A stretch of 44,068 nt of DNA from IMG/VR virus record IMGVR_UViG_2541047745_000010. One strand, 5' to 3'. Every line of letters begins with the position of its first letter. The first letter of the stretch is position 1. Below are positions 25,995 to 26,960 of the stretch, piece after piece. The notes under the pieces were generated by a model. The model was given only the letters and a program-made list of their open reading frames with translations, did no database searches and was not told the origin of the DNA. Made by a program: the position numbers and the translations under genes. The DNA comes from a virus (lineage: Duplodnaviria > Heunggongvirae > Uroviricota > Caudoviricetes).

Positions 25995-26025
25995 ACAACG
26001 AAAAGCCCCGGGACATGCCGGGGCC
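25995..26025 (-). terminator. hairpin with interrupted U-tract downstream of the membrane cargo gene
   Basis: Stem gccccgg-gacatg-ccggggc; minus strand then reads cuuuucguuguu. Confidence 0.4.
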
Positions 26026-26118
26026 AGATGGAGTGCCAGATTAAGCTTCTGGCAGTATATACTCGTGTTTGATATCGTTAAATCGCCAAAAGTAACAATT
26101 CAAACAAAGAGGATTTTT

Positions 26119-26280
26119 ATGTCTGAAAAAAACAAGCCACAAGGTGAAAATAAACCTCAGCAACCCGTGGCACCAAAACCAACTCCAACACAAAGTACTG
26201 CAGACTTTGCTACACGTCGTGTTTTTGTTGGAGATTCTGCCGACTCAGTCATTGAACATATAAAAAAACAGCCGAGATAA
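26119..26280 (+). CDS. small Pro/Gln-rich hypothetical protein (53 aa), convergent with the membrane cargo gene
   Basis: ATG at 26119 with AAGAGGA RBS; MSEKNKPQGENKPQQPVAPKPTPTQSTADFATRRVFVGDSADSVIEHIKKQPR; 3' end overlaps 26249..26818. Confidence 0.5.
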   Translation: MSEKNKPQGENKPQQPVAPKPTPTQSTADFATRRVFVGDSADSVIEHIKKQPR

Positions 26281-26818
26281 ATATCGCAGCTACCGGAGCA
26301 AGGATGGTATACATCCTTGCTTTATCGAGACTCGTGCGGATTTTCTCATTTTCCAACAGTAACTCTCTTGCTGTATCACTCAAGTCAACAAGGCGATACC
26401 TTCGTATAAGCGGCAATAACTTATCAGGTCCTAAATATCCTGCATCAGCGAATATTTTAAAGCTCGATGGCTCCATATCCTTATATTTTTCATGATATAG
26501 ATGATCAGGAGGGGCATTGATCAGGCCCCTAACCTTCACAGATAAACCAGTACATACCAAGTAAATGGCGCACCATGTCCATAGTAATGTAAATGTGGTA
26601 ATTCCAGCGGTGAGAAAATCGAAATTAGTTTTCTGTGTCAGCAATAAAAAAGATGAGCCAATTCCAACAATCTGAATGTTCAGAAGTTTGTATCCATTCT
26701 CAACATTGGTTTTGTTAGAAAGATGAATCTCTCGTATCGTCTCTTCCCCTTGTTTTTCAAGATAATCGACGAGCTCATCATCTACTCCTAAAAAATAATC
26801 TTTAGGTAGTTCTCTCAT
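26249..26818 (-). CDS. hypothetical membrane protein (3 predicted TM helices), cargo between Q and the lysis cassette
   Basis: 189 aa; hydrophobic segments IVGIGSSFLLL, ITTFTLLWTWCAIYLV, MYTILAPVAAIFISAVFLYV; markedly AT-rich; no family recognised. Confidence 0.65.
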   Translation of the reverse strand: MRELPKDYFLGVDDELVDYLEKQGEETIREIHLSNKTNVENGYKLLNIQIVGIGSSFLLLTQKTNFDFLTAGITTFTLLWTWCAIYLVCTGLSVKVRGLINAPPDHLYHEKYKDMEPSSFKIFADAGYLGPDKLLPLIRRYRLVDLSDTARELLLENEKIRTSLDKARMYTILAPVAAIFISAVFLYVQ

Positions 26819-26924
26819 CTCACCTCCACATCCTGTACTGAAAACAATTTTACCAGAATGTCTCGATTCCAGGTATTCCGCCAGGAATCGCGCTCCAGAA
26901 ATGAAACATCAGGTTCGCCAGTAC

Positions 26925-26960
26925 CAGAAACAACAAAACCCGCTCAATGGCGGGTTTTGG
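26925..26960 (-). terminator. tR'-like intrinsic terminator downstream of Q
   Basis: Stem aaacccgc-tcaatg-gcgggttt; minus strand then reads uuuuguuguuucu; ~80-110 bp downstream of the Q stop. Confidence 0.6.

Follow-up and report, generated by a model that had tools for sequence, protein, structure and literature searches.

The window analysed here, a 44,068-nucleotide (nt) stretch of viral DNA from IMG/VR (record IMGVR_UViG_2541047745_000010), is part of a lambdoid, Rac/Qin-like prophage of Escherichia coli whose late genes lie on the minus strand. Within it, positions 25994-26960 form a self-contained cassette, bounded on one side by the late antiterminator gene Q with its terminator tR' and on the other by a lambda-type holin gene. 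The cassette holds two genes that converge and overlap at their 3' ends: one, in late-operon orientation, encodes a 189-amino-acid (aa) inner-membrane protein, and the other, antisense to the late operon, a 53-aa soluble protein. We treat the two as a unit on the strength of their conserved pairing, the coding character of both genes, the position of the large gene behind a terminator, and a promoter motif that directs the small gene against the late operon. Our favoured reading, to which we assign a probability of roughly 45%, is that the membrane protein is an effector, directed either at competing phages, by exclusion or abortive infection, or at the membrane late in infection, that the mini-protein is an antagonist expressed in the lysogen, and that the two are expressed reciprocally. 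The genes and their boundaries, from upstream to downstream in the late direction, are:

27040-27582, minus strand: Q-type late antiterminator, the upstream boundary of the slot (Pfam DUF1133, 3e-108; weaker Phage_antitermQ; PHROG 753, anti-termination Q-like)
26249-26818, minus strand (late-operon orientation): gene for the 189-aa inner-membrane protein (phrog_11870), an open reading frame (ORF) with a GGAGG ribosome-binding site (RBS) at 26827-26823
26249-26280, both strands: the 32-nt overlap of the two 3' ends
26119-26280, plus strand (antisense to the late operon): gene for the 53-aa soluble Pro/Gln/Lys-rich protein (phrog_14506), with GAGG at 26109-26112, 6 nt ahead of the ATG
25561-25902, minus strand: holin of the lambda S family, the downstream boundary of the slot (Pfam Phage_holin_3_1, 2e-27; PHROG 126)
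Downstream of the holin, minus strand: GH24 endolysin and spanins

This layout agrees with an initial annotation of the DNA, which had placed a 189-aa ORF and a Pro/Gln-rich 53-aa ORF with a good RBS at these positions, overlapping by about 30 nt. It had also called the cargo strongly AT-rich. The two genes are indeed AT-rich, though moderately rather than strongly: their GC fractions are 0.38 (large) and 0.41 (small), whereas the whole window has 0.49, Q has 0.48 and the holin gene has 0.51. In a 100% identical E. coli chromosome, the Prokaryotic Genome Annotation Pipeline (PGAP) gives the same coordinates for Q and lists both cassette ORFs as hypothetical proteins. Because the small gene sits on the opposite strand between the large gene and the holin, the arrangement has the layout of a noncontiguous operon. 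Both protein families are uncharacterised, and the cassette is of the prophage accessory kind with antisense, noncontiguous-operon wiring.

The small ORF belongs to a kind that annotation often overlooks, and several records of relatives leave it unannotated. To judge its coding character we compared 102 loci that encode the large protein. In 92 of them an automatic screen found a 46-64-codon ORF on the opposite strand that ends within the large gene, its stop being 20-42 nt in from that gene's 3' end. Inspection added four further loci, two with a variant motif (L091 and L092), one with an N at the start codon (L027) and one with a frameshift (L039), so that about 96 of the 102 carry a convergent, overlapping small ORF with conserved ATG and Shine-Dalgarno (SD) sequence. 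The overlap is 20 nt long in most relatives and ranges from 20 to 42 nt. The encoded proteins follow a common pattern: an MSxxNKPxxExKPQ start, a stretch of some 25 residues, variable in length, in which Pro, Gln, Lys, Ser and Thr predominate, and then DFxxxR(V/M)x(V/I)G(D/N)SA(D/E) followed by a basic tail. In the part outside the overlap, the pooled ratio of nonsynonymous to synonymous polymorphism (pN/pS) is 0.28 in the annotated frame. The antisense frame with the same wobble positions gives 0.37, and four other frames give 1.35-1.87. This pattern of substitution clearly points to a real protein-coding gene under selection at the protein level, of the purifying kind. The initial annotation had allowed for a small ORF without conservation; what we find is the opposite. 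The protein itself is net basic (+3), lacks a hydrophobic segment and is mostly of low complexity, with one short conserved motif. Its mean column identity is 39%, versus 62% for the large protein, and no stretch of it is conserved enough for a peptide-pattern search.

Two features of the small gene vary among relatives. Some orthologues contain runs of four or five prolines (PPPPP in those of L080 and L108), so that translation of these orthologues would rely on elongation factor P, a possible further level of control. Some E. coli copies have lost 1 nt within homopolymeric A runs, which lie at 26262-26269, in the overlap, and at 26125-26131 (A7), just after the small-gene start; the losses may reflect phase variation or sequencing error. 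The deletion of strain XYEH3314 (L111) falls within the overlap and alters both C-termini; about 7 of 58 sampled full-length matches are shorter by 1 nt (among these, XYEH3314 alone was inspected). The early frameshift in the small ORF of L039 most likely also lies in the A7 run.

The two genes travel together. Among 5426 complete E. coli genomes, 228 match the small-gene region and 225 the large gene, and in 223 the match covers at least 80% of a query spanning both. The cassette thus occurs in about 4% of complete E. coli genomes, in at least 12 other enterobacterial genera and in Pasteurella, and both of its proteins are still termed hypothetical. The pairing also outlasts extensive divergence. 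On a Pasteurella multocida plasmid, a large protein 34% identical to ours is encoded next to a small partner of sequence MSNQKPSQPKPQP...VFIGDSVDIPKKK (MSNQKPSQPKPQPTPSKPQQPAYKKPVPVFIGDSVDIPKKK); here the genes abut without overlapping. In L108 and L106, whose large proteins are 24% and 21% identical to that of the window, the partners are convergent Pro/Gln-rich ORFs with basic tails that overlap the large gene by 34 and 56 nt, respectively. L109 (28% identity) pairs a relative of the large gene with an unrelated, acidic small ORF. The L108 pair lies outside the Q-holin slot, in a Rac-like immunity region with no lysis gene shown nearby. We conclude from this distribution that the pair is an ancient functional unit that is not tied to the Q-holin slot.

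The regulatory elements that we could recognise in and around the cassette are, again in the late direction:

27076-27105, minus strand: pR'-like promoter candidate TTGGCT-18-TATATT inside the 3' end of Q, a match to the consensus only
26959-26934 (stem), T tract to 26924, minus strand: tR'-like intrinsic terminator at the upstream edge of the cassette, a hairpin followed by TTGTTTCTGG, 80 nt after Q
26847-26855, minus strand: -10-like element TGGTAAAAT, of extended -10 form in this copy, 28 nt upstream of the large-gene ATG
26079-26118, plus strand: conserved 5' untranslated region (5'UTR), TAAATCGCCAAAAGTAAC..., with the SD sequence (GAGG, 26109-26112), upstream of the small-gene ATG
26070-26078, plus strand: predicted extended -10 promoter of the small gene, TGATATCGT, of the form TGnTAnnnT
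26034-26054, not assigned to a strand: inverted repeat TGCCAGA-N7-TCTGGCA, overlapping the -35 position of the small-gene promoter
26025-26004 (stem), T tract to 25994, minus strand: late-strand intrinsic terminator past the cassette, a hairpin followed by TTTCGTTGTT

The predicted promoter of the small gene recurs with high regularity. A TGnTAnnnT box stands 32-48 nt upstream of the small-gene ATG in 24 of 28 diverse loci, versus 3.7% of shuffled sequences, and its variable positions are ones of low information content in promoters of the extended -10 type. The 5'UTR that follows hardly changes from genus to genus, even where the coding sequences share only about 50% identity. Ahead of the box, the inverted repeat has a stem of at least five pairs in 14 of 24 loci and occurs in three versions that preserve pairing (GCCAGA/TCTGGC, GCCAGT/ACTGGC and GCCGCC/GGCGGC); it may form an RNA hairpin or serve as an operator, and we favour neither. 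A search of Rfam over 25850-27150 returned nothing near any family's threshold.

We observed that this upstream stretch is also found apart from the small gene. Searching IMG/VR with the 17-nt promoter box returned more than 120 stretches, of which we analysed 79 loci. The present gene pair follows the box in 29 of them, and in at least 20 others the same terminator, repeat, box, leader and SD sequence precede unrelated ORFs on the antisense strand. The part held in common corresponds to positions 26000-26118 of the window, joined at the start codon to other ORFs (within L114-L191, for example L127, L120, L129, L126, L169, L181 and L183). Among these are a zinc-ribbon protein of 67 aa together with 145- and 434-aa ORFs, DUF2441 proteins, families of 148-165 aa, and a protein of 92-94 aa that converges on, and overlaps, a late-strand ORF of 61-76 aa. 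The stretch is present in 272 complete E. coli genomes, about 228 of which carry our pair behind it. Since it is reused before other ORFs, the small-gene promoter and its 5'UTR are, on this comparison, a portable element shared with other cargo.

This portability could be taken to mean that the two genes are unrelated neighbours, with the small ORF belonging to the promoter element, the large gene being independent cargo and the overlap meaningless. The many other first ORFs behind the stretch would fit such a view, as would loci that have either gene without an intact copy of the other (L016, L021, L008 and L039). We nevertheless consider it very improbable. A small protein of the same type stands beside large proteins of only 21-34% identity, always convergent and abutting or overlapping, even in Pasteurella and in a different prophage region, and among the 79 box loci Pro/Gln/Lys-rich small ORFs occur only together with the large gene (29 loci), with no case of small without large.

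On the late strand, the placement of the elements would separate the expression of the two genes. The pR'-like candidate is positioned to yield a short, terminated leader transcript ending at 26934, and in prophages that have the same Q and lack the cassette, homology ends at about 26924, the last position of the T tract. In 19 of 27 diverse loci the large gene is preceded, at a distance of no more than 160 nt, by a terminator-like hairpin, and a terminator-like site is found at the equivalent position beyond the small-gene start in 19 of 28. The bracketing of the cargo by a tR'-like terminator and a downstream hairpin, which the initial annotation had described, is borne out by the terminator-like hairpins at 26959-26934 and 26025-26004, which flank both genes. 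By contrast, no terminator-like site was called on the small-gene strand from 26280 across the large gene to the tR' hairpin, which could itself also terminate transcription of that strand. A late-strand promoter candidate at 26081-26054 was rejected because, by eye, its -10 element is not conserved in relatives.

These features suggest how the cassette may work under the favoured reading. In the lysogen, polymerase starting at a constitutive pR' would halt at tR', while the small gene would be transcribed from its own promoter, giving a transcript that runs antisense across the large gene. This antisense transcript would suppress leaky expression of the large gene at the RNA level. At the protein level, the 53-aa protein would add to the suppression through its basic tail and its DF...R..VGDSA motif, which may bind the membrane protein at its conserved, acidic N-terminal cytoplasmic helix. 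Once the prophage is induced, polymerase modified by Q would pass tR', the membrane protein would be made just ahead of the holin, and head-on transcription would silence the small gene. The regulation by antisense transcription or collision that the initial annotation had suggested is thus a proposal well grounded in the sequence, and probably only one of the two genes is expressed at a time. If this reciprocal wiring is true, the cassette contains a switch that can be recognised from sequence and that splits lysogenic from late lytic expression within a single unit.

Alternatively, the RNA could be the main player, with the small ORF secondary: the antisense transcript would silence read-through from pR'/tR' toward the lysis genes in the lysogen, or, as the STnc6030 RNA of phage BTP1 does, destroy late mRNA, here that of related superinfecting phages with this cassette. 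The small-gene strand, on which no terminator-like site was called up to the tR' hairpin, would accommodate such a role, the promoter and 5'UTR are more conserved than either coding sequence and are reused before other cargo, and there is precedent in phage BTP1, whose lysogen-expressed STnc6030 RNA is antisense to late genes and confers superinfection exclusion (PMC7067206). As a replacement for a protein function we regard this as improbable, given the purifying selection at the protein level and the persistence of start, RBS, motif and tail in loci whose DNA is no longer recognisably similar. An RNA role is compatible with a protein role, and the two are not mutually exclusive.

The slot itself is a general cargo site, in keeping with the initial annotation, which had described the interval between Q and the lysis genes as a place for accessory cargo. 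The cassette is found behind three Q families and ahead of at least four holin families (Phage_holin_3_1, _8, _2_3 and _2_1). In E. coli ATCC 8739, which has a Q of the same family, the slot is filled by tRNA genes and an unrelated ORF, and the Q end is matched in 1492 E. coli genomes compared with only 223 for the cassette. E. coli FDAARGOS_1289 (L232) shares the holin protein and the Q family of the window but carries a different convergent pair: a 92-aa antisense ORF (MASFTVRVEL..., 2619-2897, plus strand) and a 76-aa late-strand ORF (2883-3113, minus strand) that overlap by 15 nt and match nothing in Pfam or PADLOC. The arrangement of a late-strand gene facing an antisense gene therefore recurs at this site.

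As to which of the two proteins acts and which restrains, phage phi80 offers a wiring model. There, atiEcA is expressed as part of the late operon that Q controls, and taiEcA runs antisense to this operon (PMC11364771). As in our cassette, a gene in opposite orientation interrupts a Q-transcribed operon that contains its functional partner (PMC11364771), and the reciprocal-expression logic that we propose here is an extension of this noncontiguous-operon model (PMC11364771). The systems differ in that the proteins are unrelated and Tai lies upstream of the packaging module rather than beside the holin. In phi80 the defence is encoded by the antisense gene and the antidote by the late gene; the pair in the window may have either polarity. 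Read in the phi80 sense, which is the main rival to our reading, the 53-aa protein would be a conversion or defence factor expressed in the lysogen that blocks a host or phage process via its short motif, and the late membrane protein would be an antidote that sequesters it so that the resident phage completes its lytic cycle. In favour of this reverse polarity are a small gene that has a conserved, constitutive-looking promoter and, like taiEcA, lies antisense to the late operon, and a large gene that, like atiEcA, lies in the Q-dependent direction behind a terminator. Two further observations agree with it, namely that the promoter stretch drives other antisense cargo, as expected if the antisense strand carries the lysogen-expressed payload, and that the L232 cassette likewise consists of an antisense ORF and a short late-sense ORF. 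We still judge it unlikely: a mostly low-complexity protein of about 50 aa with one short motif would make a poor stand-alone effector, the large protein is the better conserved of the two, and its persistence alone in two lineages would be odd for a pure antidote.

Besides this possible reversal of polarity, several observations weigh against the favoured reading. The first concerns expression of the large gene in the lysogen, for which the -10-like element ahead of it is the candidate. A strict pattern (.G.TA[AG]A[AT]T) is present 28-34 nt upstream of the large-gene ATG in 14 of 28 diverse loci; four more have the near variants TAAGAT or TAGTAT by eye, and L108 has AGTAAAAT directly after a hairpin. 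About one third of the loci thus lack the element, which makes lysogenic expression of the large gene, and with it the abortive-infection role that would need such expression, doubtful. Second, intact large genes occur without the small gene in a Salmonella lineage (L016/L017; protein cluster P0068, with 88 member sequences) and in L021, and the small gene is frameshifted in L039. The large protein is therefore not lethal alone, at least while late transcription is off, and the relation of a toxin to an essential antitoxin is weakened by the intact large genes that lack the small one. Third, homology and fold searches gave neither protein any activity.

A second genomic context is provided by L108. 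Its small gene follows, in the same orientation, a 158-aa ORF at the position of racR, beside ydaS and ydaT; because this ORF has no Pfam match, its racR-like identity rests on size and position. The large gene faces the opposite way, behind operator-like repeats. Between 1370 and 1500 of this locus, three repeats of the TACAA-N6-TTGTA type extend over two face-to-face promoter-like sites, TTGACT-17-TATATT on one strand and TTGACT-17-TAATAT on the other, followed by a hairpin and then by AGTAAAAT. The region looks like an OL-type operator that controls both directions. L108 would thus fit the same polarity as that favoured for the window, with the weight of one locus at 24% identity.

The large protein defines a compact family. 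It comprises about 100 clusters, nearly all of exactly 189 aa and from Enterobacterales (Escherichia, Leclercia, Citrobacter, Klebsiella, Enterobacter, Salmonella, Trabulsiella, Serratia, Yersinia, Pantoea, Providencia, Proteus, Morganella, Sodalis and others), and an exhaustive profile search of 1.8 billion representatives raised the number to 103, adding only distant members of 160-200 aa. An alignment of 39 members contains 25 invariant residues. The initial annotation had predicted three transmembrane (TM) helices, and we find three hydrophobic segments, TM1 (residues 45-62), TM2 (76-94) and TM3 (167-189). TM2 and TM3 are clear; TM1 is weaker here (17-residue Kyte-Doolittle value of 1.73) but strong family-wide (median 2.26), and one of its faces consists of conserved small residues (VGIGSSF). 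The N-terminal 44 residues, ahead of TM1, are acidic, with a net charge of -5. In an AlphaFold2 model (predicted local distance difference test score of 81), long helices span residues 14-62, 68-92 and 134-188, which we read as a three-helix membrane domain whose helices 1 and 3 may be prolonged into a cytoplasmic stalk.

Like the initial annotation, we recognise neither protein. Pfam, NCBIfam and PADLOC gave no match for either, the defence models of PADLOC-DB v2 matched neither at E values up to 10, and in PHROGs both fall into families of unknown function (phrog_11870 and phrog_14506). Fold and sequence searches with the large protein gave no informative match, a profile search of PDB sequences gave none, and a literature search by accession and PHROG identifier found nothing. 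Scanning every family member against Pfam produced scattered weak matches and no consistent family (8xMP in 6 of 60 members, best E = 0.019; YLATT in three; PycTM in one), which we treat as noise arising from hydrophobic composition.

The position of the cassette invites a role in lysis timing, in which the membrane protein would regulate the holin, as an antiholin-like or holin-triggering factor, and the small protein would adjust the regulator. Whatever the holin family, the holin gene comes directly after the cassette in nearly all loci from Enterobacterales, so that the large gene would be co-transcribed with the holin after Q, and the product of the large gene is a small, multi-TM inner-membrane protein. 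Against this stand the family searches: the large protein has no holin or antiholin match in Pfam, and 1 of 60 members weakly matches a holin PHROG (E = 0.003), so it is not the known holin, antiholin or lysis regulator that the initial annotation had considered as a possible outcome. Most lambdoid phages, moreover, do without the cassette (5 of 50,697 phage records carry the large gene), the L108 pair is in an immunity region, the L102 pair is separated from holins by other genes, and the Q-holin slot is a general cargo site. A lysis-timing function is, in our estimate, a long shot.

The nearest architectural analogue that we can point to is the sieB-ydaF pair of the Rac prophage. In K-12 MG1655 (L110), sieB (2672-3160, plus strand) and ydaF (3157-3312, minus strand) converge with a 4-nt overlap. 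In both cases the gene for a prophage inner-membrane protein of 160-190 aa (SieB has 162) converges, with a 3' overlap, on a gene of about 50 codons (51 in ydaF), and the distant homologous pair in L108 occupies the same slot, between the early-left genes and the ORF at the position of racR. The likeness does not extend to the sequences. Pfam scans, including those of every family member, gave no SieB match, an hhalign comparison with Rac SieB returned a probability of 0.1%, and YdaF bears no resemblance to the 53-aa protein on inspection. The topologies differ too: in SieB, two TM segments at the N-terminus precede a soluble C-terminal part, and in the window protein TM1 and TM2 are followed by 75 residues and then TM3. 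With no detectable homology, the large protein can be said to work like SieB and not to be a member of its family. To our knowledge, no function has been described for ydaF, and the convergence of sieB and ydaF has not been discussed as a functional unit. For the SieB exclusion system of P22, control by an antisense RNA, sas, is documented (PMC12197685, PMC7067206). P22 differs in using an in-frame peptide, Esc, and a non-coding RNA instead of a conserved antisense protein.

Convergent units with overlapping 3' ends in a prophage setting, one partner being a membrane protein, also recall type I toxin-antitoxin systems such as txpA/ratA and bsrG/SR4 of Bacillus prophages. In such systems the toxin is a hydrophobic peptide of less than about 60 aa and the antitoxin a non-coding RNA. 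We rejected this class for the cassette, whose membrane protein has 189 aa and whose antisense partner is coding (pN/pS 0.28), and likewise type II systems, since the genes are convergent rather than co-directional and match no toxin or antitoxin family.

Taken with its position and composition, the sequence evidence supports describing the cassette as an autonomous, horizontally exchanged prophage accessory cassette, or moron. It shares with the lambdoid morons (HK97 gp15, lambda bor and lom) the form of an extra block between genes that are adjacent or differently filled in relatives, with promoter- and terminator-like sites of its own and a deviating composition; in our case these sites are conserved promoter-like motifs and flanking terminator-like hairpins, recognised at the sequence level. 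For HK97 gp15, the title of a study cited in PMC11364771 describes a moron-encoded superinfection exclusion protein. The cassette departs from these examples in having two genes on two strands with overlapping 3' ends, and neither product is homologous to a named moron product. More tentatively, the cassette may be one of several alleles at a so far unrecognised exchange site beside lambdoid lysis genes, and the first of a new two-component class in which a three-TM effector is paired with an antisense, disordered mini-protein, either restraining the other; the portable antisense promoter would then drive swappable lysogen-expressed cargo with late-strand partners, and the site would be a hotspot of defence and counter-defence. 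We think it doubtful that all of this holds. In any case, the shared promoter stretch is a handle for finding more cargo near lysis genes, and it yields a compact list of candidates for screens of phage defence or lysogenic conversion. The other cargo found in this way, including the DUF2441 protein, the zinc-ribbon operon and the second convergent pair, is all uncharacterised.

Further genes of the window surround the slot. Upstream of Q lie:

29028-29183 (approximately), minus strand: hokD-type toxin gene (Hok/Gef-type, type I), within a longer ORF at 29028-29240; coordinates converted from L001, and annotated as hokD in the identical chromosome
27869-28468, minus strand: DUF1367 gene
27579-27869, minus strand: DUF1364 gene

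The order of a Hok/Gef-type gene followed by DUF1367, DUF1364 and Q genes is as in the Qin prophage. On the other side, between the lysis genes and the small terminase subunit, a 182-aa ORF (23695-24243, plus strand) lies on the strand opposite the late genes, in the slot that the Tai defence gene occupies in phi80. It has no match in Pfam or among the 50,697 phage records. The C-terminal half of this protein (YRGE..., WTTD..., ENEF) may resemble motifs of ADP-ribosyltransferases.

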